DNA from: Lytechinus pictus
Taxonomy: Eukaryota
Assembly (NCBI RefSeq): GCF_037042905.1
Contig: NC_087251.1
Span: 12,836,001 to 12,900,000, forward strand
Direction: 5' to 3'
Length of the DNA stretch: 64,000 bases
Shown here: positions 7,170-44,727 of the stretch, piece after piece
Layout: every line of letters begins with the position of its first letter
Position numbering within the stretch: position 1 is the stretch's first letter
Translations under genes and position numbers: made by a program
Notes under the pieces: model-generated
The model's database searches: none
What the model saw: only the letters and a program-made list of their open reading frames with translations
What the model was told of the DNA's origin: nothing

Positions 7170-8130
7170 CTATCCATAAAGCCGCAGCCCATTGGCAAAT
7201 GTTAGCGTCATTATCTCTGTTAGGGTGGTTCTGCGGATCTCTGCCACTACTTGGCCCACATCGCCAGATATGCAGGAGTGTTATACTCCTGGTTGGGGAG
7301 AATCGGACTACAATAGGAGCTGATCTTGCTTGATCTCCTGGACTGCGACATGCTGCTTTGTAGAAAGTAGCAATGGGGGAAGGCTTAAGTCTATTCACAG
7401 ACCGCCGTGAGGTCTCCACAGAAGCAATCCTCTGCTGCACCAGGCAATTTTCCCTTAATTGTCTCGCAAAGGCAATATGAGTTACCTCCTTGCCCAAACA
7501 GTTCCTTCTAGATCCACGGATATATATTACCAACACTTTCCCTAGGTTGCCGAGATCTAGAAAACCGATGCAAGAGAACCTCCTGCTGTTTCCATAAGCC
7601 TGGGCTCATTGTGTGGTTGAGCCCGACCTCACTCAGTCAAATTACCAGCAGAAAAGCGAGGTAATGCAAAGAAAAAAGGATCTTATTGCCTATTAGTATA
7701 GAGATGGGCCTTCTTGGGGTGGATCCCTACTGCGATATTCCACAGTTACCCTTCCTGAATATTCAGGAGATCCTGTTCAAGGGCAGGGTTAGTGAAAAAG
7801 TCAGGGTCACAGTAGTTCTTCACTCCCCCTTCTACCCCGACGTAGTGGATGGGTGCCCTCCCAGGTGTCATAGGGACTAGTTGCCGAGTCTCATTCACGC
7901 AGTCAGGCACAGGTCGAGGGACCGACATCAGGACCAGAGGCTCCTGTGCGGATTGTCCTGAATTTGAGGCAGGTCTCACCGGAATCTGTGATGGTTGCAT
8001 TCCCTAATGGTCTCTGAACTCAGCGATATGCTGTCACTGGTTATCCGAGAGTAGGTCCAATAGGAATGCCAAAGGCGGATAATGAATCAGCGCTGCGGGC
8101 AAGTTCATTTTTGGCTTGAGAGCTGGATCC
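7170..8130 (-). pseudogene. Intronless decayed TatD-family nuclease, copy 1 (partial)
   Basis: In order on the minus strand: NLPAALIHY, GGVKNYCDP, IAVGIHPK, SEVGLNHT (GEVGLD-like), KVLVIYIRG. Contains stops and frameshifts. Confidence 0.7.
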
Positions 8131-8439
8131 ACTTTTGGTCTCTTATGGTAGTCAATCATGGCCTGCATCTCGAACAGATTCTGAATCTTACTTTCTTTGT
8201 TCTATTCTTTGGGTGATGCTTCACCCATATGACTCATCTTCTCCTGGACTTCTTGGAATCAAGGAGCACAATAAGCAGTGCGCTGTATACAATCTTGCAT
8301 TGGTACTATTTTACTTTCTCTTTCCACCGACTCTGTATACAATATAGATACATATATACAATATATGGTTACCTGCTTCTTGCCTTTTATCTTTACCCTT
8401 ATCAGACCACTCCATATGAAGAAGAGTGGTGTCTTTTCT

Positions 8440-11824: not shown

Positions 11825-12556
11825 AAGGAGAGGAAGTTGTCAGGGATTCAAGCAACTACCCTCCGGGATCTGAAAAAGGAGGTGCAGAGGAGGGCACTCT
11901 ATGTAGTTCCTGAAGGCCCCCTCAAGAGGACAGTCTTTGAATTCACTGATCATTTCGCTAATAATAGCGAACCGTCTAAGAGACAAGAGCCTGAAATTGT
12001 TTGCATCGGTGCGTCGTGGAACCCTCTGAGTTGGATCTTTCTCACGCGTACGCACAACTCAACTTGGATCAGTAAAGTCAGCAGTATCTTACTATCAACA
12101 CGCATATGGGATTGTACTCCTACACAAAACTACCATATGGAATTAAGTCCTCACCGAAGATCTTCCAAGCGACAATGGATAAGATTCTTCAAGGTATCCC
12201 CCATTGCTTGTGTAATCAAGATGATGTATTGATAGCTACAACCACAGTGGATGAAAATCTTGATGTGCTTGCGCAAGTGTTGAAGCGTTTGAATGATCAT
12301 AATGTGAAGCTAAAAAGGAGCAAATGTGCCTTTGTGGAAAGTGAAGTGGTGTACCTAGGGTTGAAAGTAAGCTCACAGGGGCTTCAACGAGCTAAGAGAA
12401 AAAATCAGATCTATGTTCACAAGGCTTCTGAGGTTTTTGGTTATGAAGGGAACCAAGGAGAGGAAGTTGTCAGGGATTCAAGCAACTACCCTCCGGGATC
12501 TGAAAAAGGAGGTACAGAGGGGGGCACTCTATGTAGTTCCTGAAGGCCCCCTCAAG
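11825..12556 (+). repeat. ~102-bp direct repeat (11825-11926 and 12455-12556) flanking the RT fragment
   Basis: aaggagaggaagttgtcagggattcaagcaactaccctccggg...gaaggccccctcaag occurs twice, nearly identical. Confidence 0.9.
12025..12390 (+). mobile_element. Gypsy/Ty3 reverse transcriptase fragment
   Basis: DLSHAYAQL..YLTINTHMGLYSYTKLPYGIKSSPKIFQATMDKILQGIPHCLCNQDDVLI...LKRSKCAF..VVYLG; one in-frame stop. Confidence 0.9.
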
Positions 12557-18204: not shown

Positions 18205-19250
18205 TGAGGCTTCCCGGTTCAGTGGGCCAAATGAGCTTGTGCCGTGGCGTGGCGTCCGTCGTCTGTCGTCCGTCCACAATTTCTAAATGCTTCTTCGCCA
18301 TTTCAAGTCCGATTTCAATTCTGTTTGCTTTATATGATAGCACTAGGTGGGGGATTCAAAACTTCTACACAGAATTTTGAAATTTATTAAATATGCTAAT
18401 TTATGCGCATTTTTCAAAATTCACAAAAAAATGCTTCTTTATTTGTTGACCGATTTTGAATTTTTTGCTTCCATCTGGTAGAGCTTCATGAGGTTCACCA
18501 AACTTCTACACAGAATTTTAAAATTTTGATTAGAACAATTTTTATGCTAATTTATGCGAAATTAATTTTATTCATATTTTTAAAAATTCACATAAAATGC
18601 TTTTTCTTCTTTAATTGTTGACCGATTTTGATTTTTTTTCTTCCATCTGGTAGAACTTCATGAGGTTCACCAAATTTCTACACAGAATTTTGATTTTTTT
18701 TTTTTCAGTAGAAAATTATTTATGCTAATTTATGCGAAATTTATTCAGAAATCACAGAAAATGCCTCTTCTTCTTTATTTGAACCTGTAACATAGCAATA
18801 TTGTGAATTCGATAACTTCTTTTACATGAATGAAGGTCTGACAACCTTTTTTCCTTGATCCATGAACTTTTTTGTACTGCCTCATTGTTGTAGGATAATC
18901 ACCCTGTACACAATATAAAAAAGATACACAAGAAAAAAAAAATACAATAGATGTCCATAAGGAAACACCACTATCTTGGTCAAGATAAAGACATTTATTT
19001 CTGTTGCAGTAGCTCGGTGTTTATGCTATTGCATGTACCGGCTACTTGGTTAGTTGTTATGAAAAAGAGATGAATCACACGTTCTCATCTTAATAAAAGA
19101 TGCATCTAGAGCTCGAATGTCCAGTTGAATCTGTGAATTTGATAACTTCCTTGACATGAATGAAAGCCCGACAACCTTTTCCTCGATCCTTGAACTTTCT
19201 TGTAGTGTCTCTTTGTTATAGATTCATCTAGAGCTCGAAAGTCCAGTTAA
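18205..19250 (+). mobile_element. Helentron/HINE-like non-autonomous element with internal tandem subrepeats
   Basis: Starts with gagcttgtgccgtggcgtggcgtccgtcgtctgtcgtccgtccaca (GTCC/GTCT microsatellite), then 140-170-bp subrepeats (ttctacacagaatttt near 18363, 18504 and 18676). Confidence 0.55.
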
Positions 19251-19254
19251 ATGT

Positions 19255-19361
19255 TGACTATCCCAAGCTCGGAACGTGAATTGGTTGTGCTTGTGTCAGT
19301 GGGGGATGACGTCACTCACCTGTAGACTCCTGCTCAGGCAATCCCACTACACTTCCCCCCC
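19255..19361 (-). mobile_element. Polypurine tract and 5' part of a putative 3' LTR
   Basis: Minus strand GGGGGGGAAG (19361-19352) is immediately followed by TGTAGTGGG (from 19351), the PPT-TG junction typical of LTR retrotransposons. Confidence 0.6.
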
Positions 19362-19399
19362 ATGTTCTAAAATATTTTTCCCATGGCCAAAATTCTAAC

Positions 19400-20400
19400 C
19401 TACAAAACCAAAATAACCACCCAATTTGGATAGGTGCCTGCACAGCACCCCCCAACAATTTCCACTGGGAAGCCAAAAACAATATGTTCGTATCCCAGGC
19501 CATAGAGGCGCTGGGCGTTTTGTCGGATATCCCTCAGGACTTCATCCAGGGGAACCCGTCGGAGGTGGGCCACCTCCGTCGCCACATCCCTCAGATATGC
19601 AGAGGAGTTCGGATTATTGCCCCTCCAGATGGGCGTCCGTCTCCAGTAGGAGGCGATTACGGGAAATGCCCTGCAGGTCCTCAATCTGCTCCGGGTGCAT
19701 CCCAGATTCCCAGAAACCTTGGCTGTGTACCCGAAATAACAGTTTGAGTAAATACTCCTCCGACGGTCCAACTCGGATGTAGGGAGCCCGCAGCATTGGA
19801 CATGTATTCACTGGGCGACTGGCCCTGCACTTCGCTTAGAGTGCGCGGACTTCCCTAGAAGCGGCTGGATCTCCCTCCTCCTGACCTCGTATGTGGAGGA
19901 CGAGTACATGGCCGGAGGTCCCCATTCAGAAGATTTGCTCCAGGATCACTCGTTGCCTCGGCCACTCCAGGTTCGCAGATTTTGGCGAGGAGGTCCGCCA
20001 GCATCTTTTCGTCTACCCTGGAGGTGCCCTTTGGATGAATTCCGACCGCCACACAGCAGCCTCAGAGGGGGGATACGGATTCGCCTCCAGAGCCAGGGAT
20101 TTGCGTATACAAACACAGCCCCACACACCTCCACAGGAGTGGTGGGTGCATACCGGATGATGGAAAGCAACAATTCCCACCCTCTCTTCCCGGTATCTCT
20201 CTCCAATTTGTCCAAATGGACATGGCTGTCAAAAACCGAAGGTAAGGCCCAGGATGGCCCAGCTTGTTTCCGGGAGTCGGGCATCCTTCCCTAAGAAGCC
20301 CCTGACGAACTAGGTGGTATCGGGGGTGCTAAACTAAGCTTCTACAATGTAGAAGCCCCATTAGATGGTTGATTGGACCAATGCCCAACTCCTCCAGGGA
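19400..20400 (-). pseudogene. Intronless decayed TatD-family nuclease, copy 2 (near full domain)
   Basis: VFDSHVHLD, VAVGIHPKG, HVLVLHIRG, YFGYT, RLLLETDA and AYLRDVATEVAHLRRVPLDEVLRDIRQNAQRLY in correct order. Frameshifts; the GEVGLD segment is deleted. Confidence 0.88.
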
Positions 20401-21693
20401 CCAGCCCAAACTCCTGGCTATGCTGAGCATCTCCTGCCAAACGTAGTTGTATCTGTCTACTTTTATGAATAATACTAATAATTAGGGCTGAGTCAAAACG
20501 TTAAAACAACCAATGAAATCGTGAAAGTTTCTTATTTTGATAACTGTTTGAAAATGCTATTAAAAAAAAAAAGAACTTCCCATAAAGTTGATGAAATTTC
20601 ATATTTCACATCTTTAGGTTTTTGAAATAGCCATCAATTTTTTTAATGAGTCTTATTTTGTTGAAAACTATCAAATAAATTTAATTGGAGTTGAGTATTG
20701 AAATTCAATTTTCAGCAAATTGCACAGTAGAGACAATTCCTCATCTGATCCTGTCATTTCTGCTACATCACACTTGTATTGCTCACCAGCATGCATGTTC
20801 TCCGTTCTGGCCTTGCATACCTTGGAGAAGCGCTGCTTCTTTTTGCATCTTGAACATTCTTTGCTGTACGTGTGTTGATAACTGATATAGGTCTGTAAGC
20901 GTAGACTATACTGTGTTATTACACATGACCACTTGTACCAAGAAGCTCCTCGATGTCGCAGTGATGTTGTTGCAGCTAAACTAATAAACCTCTGTATATA
21001 GTTTTATTAAGAAATGACTACTAGTCTGTTATTTGCCTCCCATCAACTTTTTAATATGGAAAATCATAAGAAGGGTCAACAATCCCCTCAACTTCCACCT
21101 CTGTAGAGTCACTAGCCAGAGAGCAGTACTTGCTAACTTGTGGTTTCTGGCTAGTCACTGCAGCCGTAACTGCTACTCCACTGGCTGTCAGCCAGTGTGT
21201 ACATAACTGATAGAAACTTCGTGAGTTGGTCTCATATCTCATTGGTTAGGAATTATGTCAGATGGGAAAGCCTAGTCCACCAATCCCACTGGGGGCAAAG
21301 ATGGTTGCTATAGCCCTGACAGATCCCAGTTTTCACCTCGCTTTACTAATAGTTCTTCAAAAGATGCAAATCTCCATAATCTGGAATCATTCTAATATGG
21401 TTGATTGTACTGTTTTTATATGCAATAATGGTCAGTTAGAACTTAATCCTAGTTGAGGCATATCATATCTTCATACACAGTCAGTCCAATGTGAAGGCCT
21501 GGGTTTTCTTGCTCTACCACCCCTATGCATGAATCGACAGCCCCTGTAAGCCTCAATATTACATAAATTTAGTCTGTTTGAATCTTGGGATTTGACTTTA
21601 ACCAAGGTCATCATACTCTTGTAACCATGAAATATTCATGAAAAGAGGGATGCAAAGAGGCAATTTAAGCTTTTTCTACCAAAATTAGTCCAA

Positions 21694-22146
21694 TATAACT
21701 CATATTTGAACTCTGTATGAGTTTTGGGCTTTTATAATTTGAGCAATGTCAATCATTTAAGAGCAGCACAGATGGAGCATATGGAATTATCTTTTTCCGC
21801 TGGGTGCTTAGAGAGGGTAACACAGTTTAAGTGCATCCATCTCCCACACACATCACATTGCACCCATGACTTCTCTAGACTTGTCAGCTTCTCACTTGTA
21901 TTTTGATAAGTGAGCATGTCGCATACTTTGCTTTGGTTGACTGGATATACTGCATGTTCTACCATAGGTAGTCCAATACTGGTACATGTATTTAAATTTG
22001 ATCTCAGGTTTGGCTTTTATAATTTGAGCGATGTAAATCATTTTTAAGAGCAGCACAGATGGAGCATATGGAATTATCATTTTCCGCCGGGTGCTTAGAG
22101 AGGGTAACGCAGTATAAGTGCATCCAACTCCCACACACATCACATT
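21694..22146 (-). repeat. ~290-bp tandem duplication encoding partial PHD fingers; second copy is split by the foldback insertion and resumes at 25994-26093
   Basis: 21841-21960 matches 22128-22146 joined to 25994-26093. Confidence 0.9.
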
Positions 22147-25100
22147 TAGTAGACTTGTTAAGAGGTTGAACGCTGCATTTTTTAGTACAAATGTCCCACT
22201 TGGCACAAATGTTCCTTGAGTCAAAAGAAAAAGATTCATCCAAAGAGACACGCTGTATCTATGCAAATAAGCAAGTAATTTGCATAAATTTGCATATTAT
22301 GTCGATATAGTAAAAACAAGTATTTCAGAATATATATTTAATCAGAACTGCCCTAAAATTGGAAATAAAGACTAAGGGTAAGAAAGGGAAGAAAATTGTC
22401 ATGAAATAATTGGGATATCCTTGTTTATTATTACCTAATTTGCATAAATTATGCAAATTATAATTTAAAACAAAGTATTTTTTCATGAATCCTGAACTGC
22501 TTTTAAAAAACAGCAACTAATACACAATGTCAACATTCTACATGAAAGAGAATGTATTAGCGAAAACATCGATATGCTTCATGACAGTATTAGTGTCTTA
22601 ATTTGCTTAGAAAGAGGGCAAATATTTCAAAATGTATGACGTGATATTGCGCTAAAACGAGACCAAAACAATCTCTATGTCACAGTCACACTCACGAATC
22701 GGACAATAAAGCGATCAATGGTATGTCATTCGAGATAACACAATCTCAACACAATAGCTTCCATCGGCTTCTCGTATCGCTTTTGTTGGTGTGTCTGCCA
22801 CACCGTAATCTATGATACATACGGACAAAATGCATTTCGGTATCGGTAAAACACTATTAATTTTGTTTTATTTGTTTCTAATTTGTTTCTCTTGGAAAAT
22901 TTACAGGAGACATTGCTTTGCAGGCTACTGCTTTAATGAAACTCTGGCACATGAATCATGACGAATGTATCCTACCTCAATCCATATTTTAACTTTATTA
23001 AAATATATATCTTTTTGGAGACCCCGAAGTGGCAAAACTGCATCCCCCTGCATTCCCGCCACTTTACAAAACCAGTTTGACTTGTATAATCGACTTGGAA
23101 AAGACAGATGTATGAGACATCAGTCAACATGTTTCCTGAAGAAAGTTTTTTTTTTGTTTATTTAGGCCTACGCCCACGGGAGCCTTCCGAATTTACCCCA
23201 TCCCCTCTCCGTATTTCGACTTTAAATAAAAAAATATCGTGTTTTAAAACCATCGGCAAGGCAAATTGCGTTTTTTGGTATAATAAAGCAACTTTTATAT
23301 TTATATTTTTATATTTACATTCATCATTATTGATATTATTATAATTATTATTAATATTATTATTATTATTATTATTGTTACTGTTATTATTATTATTATT
23401 ATTATTGTTCTGCCATTTGTAATAGTGTTCTAGCACAGTAAAGGCTATAACCCAACAGGAGCATGCCTAGGATACCCTCTCCCTTTTTGGTTTTATGTAT
23501 TCAAAAATAGTTTATTGTCTTTATAACTCTTAAAAGATTACTTTTGTTTGTATTGATATCTTGGAATAGATTGAGGAGAAAATACTCTACAACTGACATG
23601 TAGAGGAGCTGTGGTACATTGAAGAACAGCCACACAGCCCTTTATTGATTCCACTCTATGTTAAATTTAAATATTTTTAGAGCCCAATCGGAAGAAAGAT
23701 GCATTTCTACTACACAAAGTAAAGACTCTTTGCATTCTCCTCTTGAAAAAAAAAAACATAGAAGGCACTGTTTTATATCTCATAAAATAAGTTCGTGTAC
23801 GTGACGGTGGCCTGTCGAAGTTGCCCAACCGTTTATTTTGTTTCGACAATATATATTTAGAATATCGTCTAAATGAAACCCTCATCTGGAAAAGGGCACA
23901 TATTAAAGGCAGCATCTACATTATATAGAGGAGGCCCTGGCACTGGGAAGAGGGGGCTGAAGCTTGTTAAATTTCTTCGGACCAAAATTTTACATTGAAA
24001 CTTTTTTGCTTTTCAAATTTACATCAAGAAATTTAACAAGCAAATAAACAAAATGGATTGCACAACAAAATGAAGGTTTTTTTTTTGGTAACGTTTCTTT
24101 TTTTCGTTTTGTCACATCTGCCGGAATTCCAGGGGGTGCTGTCTATGGAGAATAACACACGCAGCACAGCCCCCCCCCCTTCAGAAAAATCTTGCGGGTG
24201 CTTCAGCCCCCGCTTCCAAGTACCAGGGCCTCCTCTATATAATGTAGATGCTGCCTTTATTAAGTGCCCTTTTCCAGATGAGGGCTTCATTCAGACGATA
24301 TTCTGAATATATATTGTCAAAACAAAATAAAGGGTTGGGCAACTTCGACAGGCCACCGTCATGTACACGAACTTATTTTATGCGATATAAAACAATGCCT
24401 TCTATGTTTTTTTTTTCAAGAGGAGAAAGTAAAGAGGCTTTACTGTGTGTAGTAGAAATGTATCTTTTTTCCGAATGGACTCTAAAAATATTTAAATTTA
24501 ACATACAGTGGAATCAATAAAGGGGTATTTTAGAGCTTACGTGTGGCTTTTCTTCAATGTACCACAGCTCTTCTACATGTCAATTGTAGAGTATTTTCAC
24601 CTCAATCTATTCCAAGATATGAGTTCTAAAGACAATAAACTATTTTTGAATACATAAAACCAAAAGGGGAAAGGGTATCCTAGGCATGCTCCTGTTGGGT
24701 TATAGCCTTTACTGTGCTAGAGCATTATTACAAACTGCAAAACAACAACAATAATAATAATGATGCCAATAATAATAATAATAATATTAATGATAATAAT
24801 AATATTAATATAGATAAATATGAAATATAGATATAAAAGTTGCTTTATTATACCAAAAACGCAATTTGCCTTGCCGGTGGCTTTAAAACACGATATTTTT
24901 TTTATTTAGTGTCGAAATACAGAGAGGGGATGGGGTAAATTCGGAGGGCTCCCATGGACGTAGGCTTAAATTAAAAAAAAAACTATCTTCTGGAAACATG
25001 TTAACTGATGTCTCATACATCTGTCTTTTCCAAGTCGATAATACAAGTCAAACTGGTTATGTAAAGTAGCGGGAATGCCGCGGGGAATGCAGTTTTGCCA

Positions 25101-25990
25101 CTTCGGGGTCTCCAAAAGATATATATTTTAACAAAGTTAAAATATGGATTGAGGTGGGGTACATTCGTCATGATTCATGTGCCAGAGCTTCATTAAAGCA
25201 GTAACCTGCAAAGCAATGTCTCCTGTAAATTTTTCAAGAAAAACAAATTAGAAACAAATAAAACAAAATTAATAGTGTTTTACCGATACCGAAATGCATT
25301 TTGCCCGTATATACCATAGATTACGGTGTGGCAGACACACCAACAAAAGCGATACGAGAAGCCGATGGAAGCTATTGTGTTGAGATTGTGTTATCTCGAA
25401 TGACATACCATTGATCGCTTTATTGTCCGATTCGTGAGTGTGACTGTGACATAGAGGTTGTTTTGGTCTCGTTTTAGCGCAATATCACGTCATACATTTT
25501 GACATATTTGCCCTCTTTCTAAGCAAATTAAGACACTAATACTGTCATGAAGCATATCGATGTTTTCGCTAATATATTCTCTTTCATGTAGAATGTTGAC
25601 ATTGTGTATTAATTGCTGTTATTAAAACAGTTCAGGATTCATGAAAAAATACTTTGTTTTAAATTATAATTTGCATAATTTATGTAAATTAGGTAATAAT
25701 AAACAAGGATATCCCAATTATTTTATGACAATTTTCTTCCCTTTCTTACCCTAAGTCTTTATTTCCAATTTTAGGGCAGTTCTGGTTAGAAATATATTCT
25801 GAAATACTTGTTTTTACTATATCGACATAATATGCAAATTTATGCAAATTACTTGCTTATTTGCATAGATACAGCGAGTCTCTTTGGATGAATCCTTTTC
25901 TTGTGACTCAAGGAACATTTGTGCCAAGTGGGACATTTGTACTAAAAAATGCAGCGTTCACCCCTTTTTTTGCAGTTAACAAGTCTACTA
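22147..25990. mobile_element. 3844-bp foldback non-autonomous DNA transposon (Academ-type TAG...CTA ends, 3-bp ATT TSD)
   Basis: Arm 22147-23963 is the reverse complement of 24200-25990 with scattered mismatches; 236-bp spacer. ATT at 22144-22146 and 25991-25993. Confidence 0.92.
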
Positions 25991-28900
25991 ATTGCACCCA
26001 TGACTTCTCTGGACTTGTCAGCTTCTCACTTGTATTTTGATAAGTGAGCATGTCACATACTTTGCTTTGGTTGACTGGATCTACTGCATGTTTTACCAAT
26101 TCATGGTAGACATATCCACATGGGTATGGACGGCTTCTTGAATAACAGCTTTATGCTGAATTTCCTTTAGCTTGCATGGCATTTTGTATTCTTCTAAGAG
26201 AAACTCCTGCAATTTCTTGTTTTTCTTTGCTGTACGTAGTTTTATCTTCTTAGACACGGTGGAAGAAAACTTATTTATTATGTTGCCAATTCCTGGCCCA
26301 TCCTGTTCAGAAATGCCCATCATCCTACAAATCCAGTTATGGGTATCTTTCCAGGTATGCTGGTTCATGGTCCGATATTTGTTAAGTTCACAAATCATCG
26401 CATTTGTAATCTTGATGCCTTTGAGATCATCTGAATCACGTTGACCATTCAGCCATCTTCTTGTTATCCCAGCAGCCTTACAAACTGGGCCAATGATTTC
26501 AGCTGTGGTAACAAGGGGACAAACATCATCTAATTTGCTGACTTTCTTATTCCTAATTTTTCTGACAAAGTTTCCCCAATTCTTCAATTCATAGCTTGGT
26601 GTCATCATCTTCAAAATGGCTGAAATCCTTTCTCCGAGAGGGAGGCTTTGCTGCTCAACTTCATTGATGATTTCCAAGAACACCCTAAAAGATGCCCCAC
26701 TTGCATCAGGTGCCCAATGATCTGCCAACAAGAAAATCAATGAGAAGAAAACATGAAATTATTTAGGGAGAAACACAATTGCCAATTTTAATGTTTGTTT
26801 TTCTTAAGAAATGTATTATAGTATACAAAGAATAATAATGATGTGTGTGTGTGTTGAAAAATTAATAAAAATAAAACATGATTCTCTTGTAATGTATTGT
26901 GTTTGTGTTAGAAAAAATATTTTTATCTTCATCTGTATAGAATAGATTTATGAGGAAAATAAAGTGATAAAGTACATGTAATTTTGAAATTCTTCATAGA
27001 TTCATAACCAATCAATAATATTTAATGCCTACATGGGAGCTTGAGTTCAGTCACAAGCTGCATAATATCATTCAAAGACCACATGATGTCAGGATTTGAA
27101 GATGATCAGTAAGGAATGCTAAGCTTGAACTACATGTACAGAGTACAGTTGATTTCAACATCTGGCATATATAAATAACAATTCAAATATAAGAAGTTGT
27201 AATATGTACCGGTAATGGCAAAAAAAAAGTCTGGCAAAAGTCCATAAAAACCGACAATTTTTCACTATTATATCGGCAGGATAACATTTTATAAGAAAGA
27301 GATATATATACAATTACTAATAAATTACTTCAGGTATTATTTGTATCTCATTTCCCTTGAAATAACATAGTATTAATAATATTATTTTGTGCACTCTTCA
27401 TTGTGTCATGGCATGCTATAAAATAAGAGGGAACGTGTACGCTAAATGAAAGAGCCCCATTCCCGGAAATTCAATGGAAATTTCCACGAGCGCGCACGTG
27501 GCCCATCGGCGAGACGATAACATCACGCTGTTCCTTTTTTCGCGCTTCACCCCTACGAAACCTTTACACACACTATCCACAAATCACCATCTTTTTTCAA
27601 TGATAAATAGCAAATTATAAAATGAATTATAGAATTTTAAATCATAAAAAACTTACTTGGAACATTTGTAGTAGACAATTGTCATTATCATCCTTTTGTT
27701 CTTGGTGTACTTCATCTTTTGCTGGTGTGGTAAAAGTTGCTGCTCTCTTTGCAGCGGGGTTCACACATGGAGAAACAAAAGTCCTTTTCTTTCTTTCATT
27801 TTTTTTCGAACACCTCTTGTTTCTTCTGGTTTGACGCATTAATTTTGATTTACAAGATCCACAAATAAAACAATAATGTTGTCCCTATGAAAAAACTTCC
27901 ACACAGTTCTCGGACTAGTAAAAGAAGATAATCTGTATTTATAGCACACTCTAGTGTGCCCAAAATACTCATTACAGATTACACATTGCTTCTGGCTTTC
28001 CGCCATTCTTAGTTTCTGCTTTAAGGAGACTCTGCATCTGAGCTTCACTTGCAGCAGATCTCAAAAGACCCCACTGAGCATAAAAGAAGGGAATTCCCCT
28101 AGCTCTACGTCATGAATATTCATTTATTTTGATTGAATCGTGTTTTCTTTGCACACGCGCCCTAGCCTTGAGCTCCCTGGGTTAAGATGTATGTTACGAT
28201 TTTATGATCGCTGTACGAGCGTCTGATATCCCTAGTATTACTGGAAGCAGTGGACCTGCCAACGCCAAAGAGTAGGCCAATGCTTCGATATGTATTTGGG
28301 GTAGCCAGTCTCCAAATTGTGATGGCTAACTTACTGCTTCTCTACATCGCTAGTGTGGGCACCTCTGTTCAGTTTTTTTTCTCTCTTTACTCATCCAGAA
28401 AGTTGAATGTCCTCTCAAAATTCTGAAATGTTCTTTTCTCTCGACTTCAGAGAAGGGTGTACGGGCGTGCTCCCACCAAACTCCAGTTCGATTCTAGCTA
28501 TAAACGTTGGAGTAGCGCTAGGTTTAAGCGCTGGCATTAAGAATCATCAAGGACAAAGTGGAAGTGATTTTGCCACAATAATACAGGTCACTTTGTCATT
28601 GATGAAGACGTCTTGCTAGACGATGTCCCCAAGATATCGATGCCGAATCTTCACTAGAAATAGGTCTCCCACTTATAGTTCCACTTCCCAAATCTAGCAT
28701 GAACACCATAACAATTGAGCTGACAATAAAAAAATCACCAATCACCAAACATCTCATTCTTTCCTCAAGTTAACTTAATACCTCAAACCTAGCTGTATGT
28801 TTAATAGAACATAAAAGCTTGGTGAAAAAACAACAACTAACAAAACTGTTTCTGTCACTGGCCACCTTCGCAGGGAATTTCTCAAAGAGTCTCTTCTATT

Positions 28901-30539: not shown

Positions 30540-30793
30540 AGGCTGTCACACCTGTATGATTTAACCAGGTGCTGATGTACTTATGTCAAGCTGTTTTATC
30601 CTATAATCGTATTTCTTGATATCAATATTGAAATTTTTAGGTATTAAAGATGTCATTCATTAACTATACTAAATGATTTTCTGATGTATCAATATTTGAA
30701 TTCTTGATATTAAGGAATATAAATAAATGATGCAATGGGCTTGCCATACTTGGATCAGCATATGCTGGTTTAATCACCCAGGTGTGACAGCCT
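30540..30793. mobile_element. ~250-bp MITE with 15-bp TIR
   Basis: aggctgtcacacctg ... caggtgtgacagcct. Confidence 0.7.
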
Positions 30794-30797
30794 TTAA

Positions 30798-31398
30798 AGG
30801 TCAAGTCCACCCCAGGAAAATGTTGATTTGAATAAATAGAGAAAAATCAAACCAGCATATTGCTGAAAATTTCATCAAAATCGGATGTGAAATAAGAAAG
30901 TTATGACATTTTAAAGTTTCACTTATTTTTCACAAAACAGTGATATGCACCACTCAGTGACATGCAAATGAGTCAGTCGATGATGTCCATCACTCACTAT
31001 TTCTTTTGCTTTTTATTGTTTAAATTATACATTATTTCATTTTTTACAGATTTAACAATAAGGACCAACTTGACTGCACCATATGGTATTGAACAATGCT
31101 AATTCCACATGTTCAGGGAGGAATCATTGTTGTTTCACTTGACAATGAGGAGAAAATTAGAATATTTCATAATTCATATAATAAAATACAAAGGAAATAG
31201 TGAGTGGATGAAGTCATCAGTTTCCTCATTTGCATACCAGCCAGTATGTGCATATAACTGTTTTGTGAAATCAAGATAAACTTTAAAATGTCATAACTTT
31301 CTTATTTCACATCCGATTTTAATGAAATTTTCAGTGTTATGCTTGTTGGATTTTTCTCTTTTATTCAAATCAACTTTTTGTTGGGGTGGACTTGTCCT
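30798..31398. mobile_element. Kolobok-type palindromic MITE (TTAA TSD), family B copy 1
   Basis: TTAA-aggtcaagtccacccc ... ggggtggacttgtcct-TTAA; long imperfect inverted arms; second copy at 44041-44641. Confidence 0.88.
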
Positions 31399-32049
31399 TT
31401 AAGTAAACCTTTAGTAATGTCCTCCATTGAAGTCCATCTACTGAATAATTTCATGTACCTCCATTTCCATTTGAAAGACTTGATAGGAAATAATGTAGAT
31501 AGTGATTACTGGATCTTCAGTGAGGTCCATTATTTCAGATTCGTTTAGCATTTTTTTGGGGGGATAAATTATGCAGATAATGTGCCTTATTTGTAATATT
31601 TTCTTCAAAGTTTACCTCTATTCATTCAAAGTTTTTTTGGTTTGTGTAATATTTCCAAGCTGTTTTTAGTACCCACTTGGAAGCAAAAAAATTAAGTTTA
31701 TTGAACCCTTTGATAATCAGTGCAAAGTACATGTATATGGATGCCATGAAAATGTACAAATATTAAAATGTGTTTAAAATGTTCTTATAAAAAAAATTAG
31801 AGTTTTCAACAAGCACATCATCAATCTTAGAAGTGGGTTGGAATTACATTAATTTATGAAACTTGAAATCTATTTTGCAAAAGACGAAGCCAGGAGTTGT
31901 TAATTATCTTGTGTTATACATTAATCTTGACTTATAATAAGTCAGTTGCAATAGAAAAATTCAATCGTAGTACAACAATGTTGAATCACTCAATGTCAAC
32001 TTCCTTTTGTACTTGCTTTTTTGAGTGAGATGACAGATGTCAGGTGAAT

Positions 32050-43852: not shown

Positions 43853-44040
43853 CTACATGAAAGGAAGAAAAAAAAAAAAAAAAAACATTTCATACATATA
43901 TTCATTTTAATGCAATTAAAATGTTTAGCTTCTTGGTTTAATCCTTTTTTTTTAATTGGAGACAACTGACCCCACCCAAATTAATTGCATCTCAATGAGG
44001 TACATTTTTTTATTTTTTATTAGAGCTTAACTTCCCTTAA

Positions 44041-44641
44041 AGGTCAAGTCCACCCCAGAAAAATGATGATTTGAATAAATAGAGAAAAATCCAACGAGCA
44101 AAACGCTAAAAATTTCATCAAAATCGGATGTAAAATAAGAAATCTATGACAATTTAAAGTTCCGCTTATTTTTCACAAAACAATTATATGCACATGTACA
44201 GTATCTCAGTGACATGCAAATGACACAGTCGATGATGTCCATCACTCACTATTTCTTTTGTTTTTCATTGTTTGAATTATACAATATTTCATTTTTTACA
44301 GATTTGACAATAAAGACCAACTTGACTGGACAATATAGTATTAAAACAATATGCTAATTCCACATGTTCAGGGAGGAATTAATCTTTGTTTCACTTGACA
44401 ATGAGGAGAAAATTAGAATATTTTATATGAAATACAACAGAAATAGTGAGTGGATGACGTCATTAGTTCATTCGCATACCGACCAGGATGTACATATAAC
44501 TGTTTTGTGAAATTAAGCAAAACTTTAAAATGTCATAACTTTCTTATTTTACATCCGATTTTGATGAAATTTTCAGTGTTATACTTGTTGGATTTTTCTC
44601 TTTTTATTCAAATCAATTAATGGTTGGGGTGGACTTGTCCC
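44041..44641. mobile_element. Kolobok-type MITE family B copy 2 (intronic)
   Basis: TTAA at 44037-44040 and 44642-44645; homologous to 30798-31398. Confidence 0.88.
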
Positions 44642-44727
44642 TTAAGTTGGACCTTTCTACTCTGTCACTAGGAGCGTAACAAATCATGTGGCCACTCTCA
44701 TTATTCTATCACTTTCATCATCAAACT

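Follow-up and report, generated by a model that had tools for sequence, protein, structure and literature searches.

The LTR retrotransposons closest to the system considered here are Juno and Vesta of bdelloid rotifers, in which an enzymatic, non-envelope third open reading frame (ORF3) follows pol; its catalytic residues are intact and its product is predicted to be a 3'-5' exonuclease (PMC5408684). Ty3/Gypsy elements of orchids carry an ORF for an AlkB-type demethylase (PMC9289625). Among host nucleases, TATDN2 proteins have an HxH motif and an N-terminal extension that often includes a nuclear signal (PMC10085689); human TATDN2 breaks down the RNA strand of R-loops (PMC10711561), and in medaka the primordial germ cells are shielded from R-loops by tatdn2 (PMC12709183). 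The locus described here very probably derives from a Ty3/Gypsy lineage whose ORF3 ends in a predicted TatD nuclease; the copy at this locus is a dead, 5'-truncated fragment of ORF3 and polypurine tract (PPT), and itself does nothing.

The locus lies in the window, which is the whole 64-kb stretch of DNA that was analysed. The features of the window that bear on this lineage are as follows.

20296..20463, minus strand: C-terminal piece of the ORF3 middle (Cys/His) domain, with one stop (tblastn, family profile)
19493..20248, minus strand: TatD domain of ORF3, pseudogenised (tblastn, family profile, tree placement)
19352..19361, minus strand: polypurine tract GGGGGGGAAG, resembling the junction of 12 of 19 relatives
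19253..19351, minus strand: probable start of a 3' LTR (TGTAGTGGG...), end not defined; the LTRs of relatives begin TGT(G/A/T)GT
7173..8189, minus strand: a further dead ORF3 remnant from this clade, less closely related (tblastn with P0032, E=8e-46; profile)

As delimited by profile and tblastn matches, the TatD domain at 20248-19493 is broken into six pieces; the reading frame changes five times and there are three stops in frame. The initial annotation, which had read a near-complete domain from five motifs, was right about their order and span; the motifs all lie on the minus strand and are divided among three frames (DSHVHLD and NAQRLY in frame 0, AVGIHP in frame 1, VLHIR and LLETDA in frame 2), and that the gene is a pseudogene went unmentioned. 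The HxH (DSHVH), the first inner His and the ETD motif are still present; the stretch with the catalytic Glu motif is absent, the site of the second inner His is Gln, and the window copy does not have the full Glu/His/His/Asp metal site. Pfam applied to the window alone recovers only the C-terminal TatD piece, at E=6.7e-4 and under the cut-off; intact relatives align to the whole domain in tblastn (E down to 2e-19). The GC content of the TatD remnant is 0.57, against 0.35-0.37 in the flanking DNA.

The middle-domain piece is matched by P0004 in tblastn (E=0.003), and the family profile scores 12.2 bits on ~20442-20332, a score reached by none of 200 shuffles (maximum 6.1) and beaten by one of 213 window tiles, which is the second remnant (8189-7173). 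The linker between this piece and TatD is far shorter than in sea-urchin relatives. On its 5' side the fragment ends at ~20470; in a tblastn of the window no match to the gag or pol of the clade adjoins this point, and the 64 kb yielded neither gag nor pol, a 5' LTR or a target-site duplication belonging to the TatD element. The window copy is assigned to Ty3/Gypsy by ORF3 homology only; by itself the window holds a dead TatD gene and a plausible PPT, without proof of an LTR element. Sequencing runs contain at most 0.27 of the words of the query; four runs leave 18961-20439 uncovered at 80% likeness and are uninformative on the LTR; they cover 20440-21048 patchily, with many short contigs, as for repeats.

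The PPT directly followed by TG that was first reported here, in the same orientation as TatD, is confirmed: GGGGGGGAAG occupies 19361-19352 and TG begins at 19351, ~140 nt past NAQRLY. Ten purines followed by TG (R10-TG) occur 42 times in the window, compared with 13.5 expected from shuffles, so that PPT-TG alone is within chance. A junction matrix of 12+6 nt, trained on 12 sites from relatives of which one is spurious (L016), ranks the window site second of 127,964 positions with 16.0 bits, whereas 11 of the 12 family sites, left out in turn, score 20-29 bits. With an 18+8 matrix the window site falls outside the top six, and with an earlier matrix (six training sites, one of them wrong, L004) it ranks fifth. 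The window junction, AGAACATGGGGGGGAAG followed by TGTAGT, resembles those of L001 (AGAACGGGGGGGAA followed by TGTGGT) and L003 (AAGACGGGGGGGAA followed by TGTAGT). The spacing from TatD to PPT, ~140 nt in the window against 273-1145 nt in 12 relatives, is the shortest of the set. Position and likeness support membership of the window junction in the family, short of proof.

At most ~100 nt of the presumed LTR stand before an unrelated repeat, which extends from ~19252 downward. No other stretch of the 64-kb window repeats what follows the PPT, so that a second LTR was not recovered within it. At 19351-19294 (minus strand), TGTAGTGGG is mirrored 58 nt on by CCCACTGACA, and between the two lie a donor-like CAG/GTGAGT and TGACGTCA; the mirrored stretch could be an internally deleted LTR or a product of chance. 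A donor-like AG/GTAA is found in the LTRs of relatives at five loci, 174-243 nt from the start.

The relatives of the window copy are long proteins that end in TatD. With the first 75 residues as query, phmmer returns nine matches: five with Pfam TatD, two fragments with the same motifs, and two chance matches without TatD in Pfam (P0001 and P0006), which were rejected as relatives; the named matches are sea-urchin proteins. A profile search for long forms gives 35 proteins of ~500-1120 aa with TatD at the C-terminal end, either named from Strongylocentrotus, Lytechinus or Diadema, or unnamed, and one protein cluster contains many members from Dreissena polymorpha. Within the Dreissena cluster, four proteins of 749 aa share 98-99.5% identity and have four LOC numbers; the lineage is thus multi-copy and recently active in Dreissena. 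The relatives clear the Pfam TatD cut-off (PF01026) with E of 1e-22 to 1e-39. Of 47 relatives, 39 have the complete set of seven active-site residues (three of the other eight have substitutions and five are N-truncated fragments), and 42 have HxH, the N-terminal end being absent in the other five. P0004 and P0021, ORF3s of Lytechinus labelled 'mucin-17-like', carry substitutions (His to Arg, Asp to Asn) that leave the TatD site degenerate, and possibly represent a nuclease-dead branch.

In the AlphaFold model of P0028, disordered linkers join two ordered domains, and the model matches TatD/YcfH barrels (Foldseek E 7e-14); an Atlas look-up of a TatD domain returns generic TatD clusters only. 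Pfam scans find no envelope family in ORF3, the C-terminal end of which is TatD. The ~140-aa middle domain recurs in all but two of the 37 proteins aligned (35 of 37); it opens with CPxxxC and HxxxH and closes with the motif P-N-S-P-A...HWR, and Pfam scans assign it to no family. Its predicted fold (pLDDT 93.6) has no clear match among 48,161 chains (best VIA Z 3.6), which is no proof of a new fold, and has no viral structural match at E<=0.001, with Atlas scores below 0.9. Of 33 proteins, 20 have a basic cluster ahead of the middle domain, compared with 8 of 154 linker tiles. In a word-based homolog search the N-terminal read-through has no match and the middle domain finds only itself; two scans of viral contigs found no relative.

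Some TatD proteins of this kind carry other labels. P0031, P0034 and P0119 are listed at NCBI as 'MAG: TatD family hydrolase [Sedimenticola sp.]', and P0031 and P0034 are placed within the element clade in the 72-row tree described below; such Sedimenticola-labelled TatDs are probably animal DNA binned with a symbiont. A 'TATDN2' is mentioned among transposon-like genes in the giant squid Hox cluster (PMC6962438), and it may be an ORF3 of the same kind.

The layout of the element at the DNA level comes from metagenome contigs of a sister branch, and the sea-urchin branch is represented by gene models only. A scan of metagenome contigs gives 30 loci, 26 of eukaryote type and four treated as prokaryote, and the layout of the lineage is HhH-gag-CCHC / PR-RT-RH-IN-PHD / ORF3 / PPT / LTR / PBS, the LTR measuring ~225-265 nt. 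L001, L003 and L012 have three ORFs: a PNMA-like gag with CCHC and an N-terminal HhH, a pol with PR-RT-RH-IN-PHD, and an ORF3 of 815-1081 codons ending in TatD. A gag that starts with a helix-hairpin-helix is seen in L001, L003, L008, L012 and L013, and a pol that ends in a PHD finger is seen clade-wide. The Ty3/Gypsy gene order PR-RT-RH-IN is found in L001, L003 and L012 (gag and pol), in L007 (pol) and in P0106. Ten eukaryote-type loci extend 2.7 kb or more upstream of TatD, and in nine of them pol is found there on the same strand; the exception is L016, which shows no pol in 3.5 kb. The gag-pol that was to be looked for upstream of TatD is therefore present in the relatives and does not adjoin the window copy. 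TatD is fused to pol in no intact locus.

At the 3' end, the junction AA..GGGG(G/A)G(G/A)(A/G), followed directly by TGT(G/A/T)GT, is found 273-1145 nt past TatD in 12 of 19 loci, and five of six loci without a junction match have less than 370 nt of 3' DNA. A PBS-like TGGCG lies 224-267 nt past the junction in five loci. In L008 and L013 the start of gag follows the junction and LTR, so that one sequence is present at both ends of the element; paired LTRs are inferred from contigs in which the assembler would have collapsed the two LTRs, rather than seen as two copies. Gene models also join parts of the element: P0106, a chimeric model from the cluster of S. purpuratus P0032, reads gag-PR-RT-RH-IN-middle domain-TatD; P0011 joins gag to ORF3; P0092 (Dreissena) reads TatD-gag-RT-RH-TatD; and P0035 joins the PHD of the pol end to ORF3. 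A retrotransposon lineage with TatD as an accessory ORF between pol and PPT, as the initial annotation had proposed, holds in the relatives, and the window copy nests in their clade. The env position assigned to TatD stands as a place after pol; it is positional only, TatD being the C-terminal domain of a long enzymatic ORF3.

Placement of the window copy is based on a quick tree of 72 rows (with 22 of 57 prokaryote rows) and a careful tree of 28 hand-picked rows, in which the window copy was entered as a read-through with X at each break. The trees contained one TATDN2-like protein (P0051) rather than that of the host, and no TATDN1/3. The element TatDs, including the window copy, form a single clade with support of 99 (72 rows) and 100/100 (28 rows), and the window copy falls among sea-urchin ORF3s, nearest to P0022 and P0024 at 42-44% identity. 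The nearest non-element branch is P0051 (98/96), which we take to be TATDN2-like from its motifs; it has two CCHC knuckles before the nuclease domain and does not have the middle domain. The AU test rejects a grouping of the window copy with prokaryote TatDs (p-AU 5e-5) and with P0051 (p-AU 1e-4), the latter bearing on a host-derived ORF, which had been named as grounds for giving up the proposal. An [FY]CDP-like motif is present in 38 of 47 element TatDs and in P0051, compared with none of 22 prokaryote TatDs.

The TatD of relatives is shown by sequence comparison to be under purifying selection. Synonymous divergence (dS) is saturated for TatD pairs at 55-74% amino-acid identity and for 6 of the 10 pairs in the dN/dS comparison; one pair has dN 0.38 and dS 2.05. 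The TatDs of L009 and L010 differ by 0.22/0.15/0.59 at codon positions 1/2/3, and for the middle domain of L010 and L022 dN is 0.14 and dS 0.86. Identity is 30-67% for TatD versus 59-91% for integrase. Distances for integrase and TatD are correlated (Spearman 0.61, over 28 non-independent pairs), and L012-L013-L014 is recovered by trees of both; deeper branches differ, and P0106/P0032 is placed differently. Co-inheritance of integrase and TatD is partly shown by these comparisons.

The second remnant (8189-7173, minus strand) includes the end of the middle domain and a TatD without its N-terminus, with no PPT after it; in the 28-row tree it is sister to S. purpuratus P0032 at 100/96. Directly before it on the same strand (9278-8430) is a BEL/Pao-like gag remnant (DUF1759, E=0.016, with Cys/His knuckle-like motifs), which was considered as its carrier and is taken as a neighbour. 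The window also contains unrelated Gypsy pieces in opposite orientations, an RT at 12004-12387 (plus strand) and an RH-IN at 14263-13227 (minus strand), with short shared repeats between them; as candidates for the pol of the TatD element these pieces (12.0-14.3 kb) were rejected, being of a distant lineage (branch 3.65; 22-39% identical to the pol of the clade). A 1.85-kb inverted repeat (22143-23963 and 24200-25994; 91% identical) seems to lie between an orphan ORF of 221 codons and duplicated pieces of a PHD finger (PHD E=1e-5), the parts on either side being 21674-22146 and 26093-26758 (minus strand). The PHD pieces at 21768-21863 and 22040-22147 were rejected as the pol end of the TatD element: the matches are weak (E>=0.005), no integrase lies beside them, and the DNA is continuous with the ORF at 26 kb across the inverted repeat. 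Two copies of a 610-nt palindromic MITE-like element, 87% identical, lie at 30791-31404 and 44034-44647.

Taken together, the finding is very probably a dead ORF3/PPT fragment of a Ty3/Gypsy lineage in which the TatD of ORF3 may act in the nucleus and remove RNA from RNA:DNA hybrids. The ORF3 of this lineage is probably an active nuclease kept for the element. By analogy with TATDN2, the predicted TatD may, as a tentative reading, strip RNA in the nucleus from R-loops formed at the element's own copies, or from intermediates that are RNA:DNA hybrids. The grounds for this role, all indirect, are the basic cluster, the CDP-type motif shared with P0051, the position of P0051 as nearest non-element branch, and what is reported of TATDN2 in human and medaka. 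ORF3 would be made as a separate protein, the basic cluster before the middle domain would carry it to the nucleus, and the Cys/His domain may bind zinc and nucleic acid or a partner. The TatD, of Group II (HxH) and most like the TATDN2 type, would then trim RNA from R-loops that form where copies are transcribed, or from hybrids that arise during replication, allowing the copies to remain transcribed and to be tolerated by germ cells. Still more tentatively, an old, still active Gypsy clade that ranges from urchins to bivalves may have captured a TATDN2-type nuclease, fused it to a zinc-binding domain outside any Pfam family, and put it to use as an R-loop resolvase of its own, by which its copies would remain transcribed and the germ line of the host would survive. 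If so, many invertebrate 'TATDN2-like' annotations are transposon genes, and TatD is a further exonuclease fold independently recruited to the ORF3 slot. Counting against removal of RNA, the element already encodes RNase H, the likeness of P0051 to TATDN2 is judged from motifs, and TATDN1/3 act on DNA (PMC10085689).

It is possible, if rather unlikely, that the nuclease of the same element works instead on element cDNA, where 3'-5' trimming of ends or flaps or incision at abasic sites would give clean substrates for integrase. Reverse transcriptase has no proofreading, and the best solved matches in sequence and fold are bacterial YcfH-type DNases, both of which favour action on cDNA; most Gypsy elements, however, integrate without such an enzyme, no intact locus has TatD fused to pol, and motif and tree lean to a TATDN2-type protein. 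Human TATDN1 and TATDN3 and the E. coli paralogs, being 3'-exonucleases and AP-endonucleases on DNA (PMC10085689), also fit with it. Equally doubtful is a role in counter-defence, in which ORF3 would hide the element from host nucleic-acid sensors or the piRNA pathway by destroying surplus cDNA, hybrids or the precursors of small RNAs. Masking of retroviral DNA by TREX1 is a parallel. The faster divergence of TatD than of integrase is as often seen in conflict genes, but integrase is generally more conserved than accessory ORFs, and the basic cluster suggests a nuclear rather than a cytosolic site. Unrelated 3'-5' exonucleases have repeatedly come to occupy the ORF3 slot, as with the DEDDy enzymes of Juno and Vesta, for which a role of ORF3 in silencing has also been raised (PMC5408684).

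It is very improbable that TatD is a passenger, or a domesticated gene serving the host, that travels with the element and gives it no help. ORF3 has no clear link to copy number in rotifers (PMC5408684), and two Lytechinus proteins, P0004 among them, have a degenerate active site; against this, active sites are retained in a clade whose synonymous sites are saturated, in young multi-copy elements with intact pol, and a passenger would decay, as both window copies did. Hardly tenable, and on sequence grounds largely refuted, is the idea that the window copy is a processed host TATDN pseudogene or a bacterial transfer beside a chance purine run and TG: the absence of adjoining gag-pol or a paired LTR, the abundance of R10-TG in the window and the GC content of the remnant would agree with it, but the AU test rejects a grouping with P0051 or prokaryote TatDs, the element-specific middle domain that P0051 does not have lies directly upstream, and the window junction resembles that of the family.

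With TatD established as an ORF3 domain of the element, the removal of RNA from hybrids remains the preferred reading of its function, and the lineage can be set beside described systems. In the literature, including bioRxiv, no report of TatD in retrotransposons was found, and repeat libraries (Repbase, Dfam), supplements and subscription journals may have such elements; the main texts of PMC5408684, PMC13524379, PMC8220671 and PMC6338049 do not use the word 'TatD'. TatD as a Gypsy ORF3 is apparently undescribed, and ORF3s that encode enzymes, 3'-5' exonucleases among them, have been described before (PMC5408684). In databases TatD ORF3s appear under host-gene names ('TATDN2', 'mucin-17-like', 'uncharacterized') or under that of bacterial TatD, so that apparent nuclease expansions are inflated.

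The TATDN2 proteins resemble the element TatDs in HxH, in the same metal ligands and in a long N-terminal extension with basic clusters (PMC10085689, PMC10711561, PMC12709183), and P0020 is named 'putative deoxyribonuclease TATDN2' at NCBI. The element TatDs differ in being intronless and multi-copy, in residing in LTR elements, in forming a long-branch clade of their own and in having the extra middle domain; the relation to TATDN2 is put forward as a resemblance. Bacterial YcfH/TatD DNases (PDB 1yix, 6l25) are the best solved matches (sequence E 1e-23, and fold), but they are stand-alone proteins of 260 aa without the CDP motif and fall outside the element clade. The orchid AlkB elements are similar in that a host-type nucleic-acid enzyme was captured by Gypsy, and differ in enzyme class and in the kingdom of the host (PMC9289625).

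The elements described here share with Juno and Vesta a non-envelope enzymatic ORF3 after pol, the nuclease being DEDDy in the rotifer elements (PMC5408684) and a TatD TIM barrel here; among the ORF3s of L001, L003, L007 and L012, Pfam finds only TatD_DNase and no DEDDy exonuclease. Unlike in Juno and Vesta, TatD forms the end of a protein of ~500-1120 aa whose middle Cys/His domain is conserved, a PHD finger closes pol and an HhH opens gag, and the hosts are echinoids and a bivalve. Intact natural TatD copies open the question of why LTR elements carry enzymatic third ORFs to simple assays, and the presence of TatD in the same slot as the rotifer DEDDy exonucleases suggests that an extra nuclease has been needed more than once.
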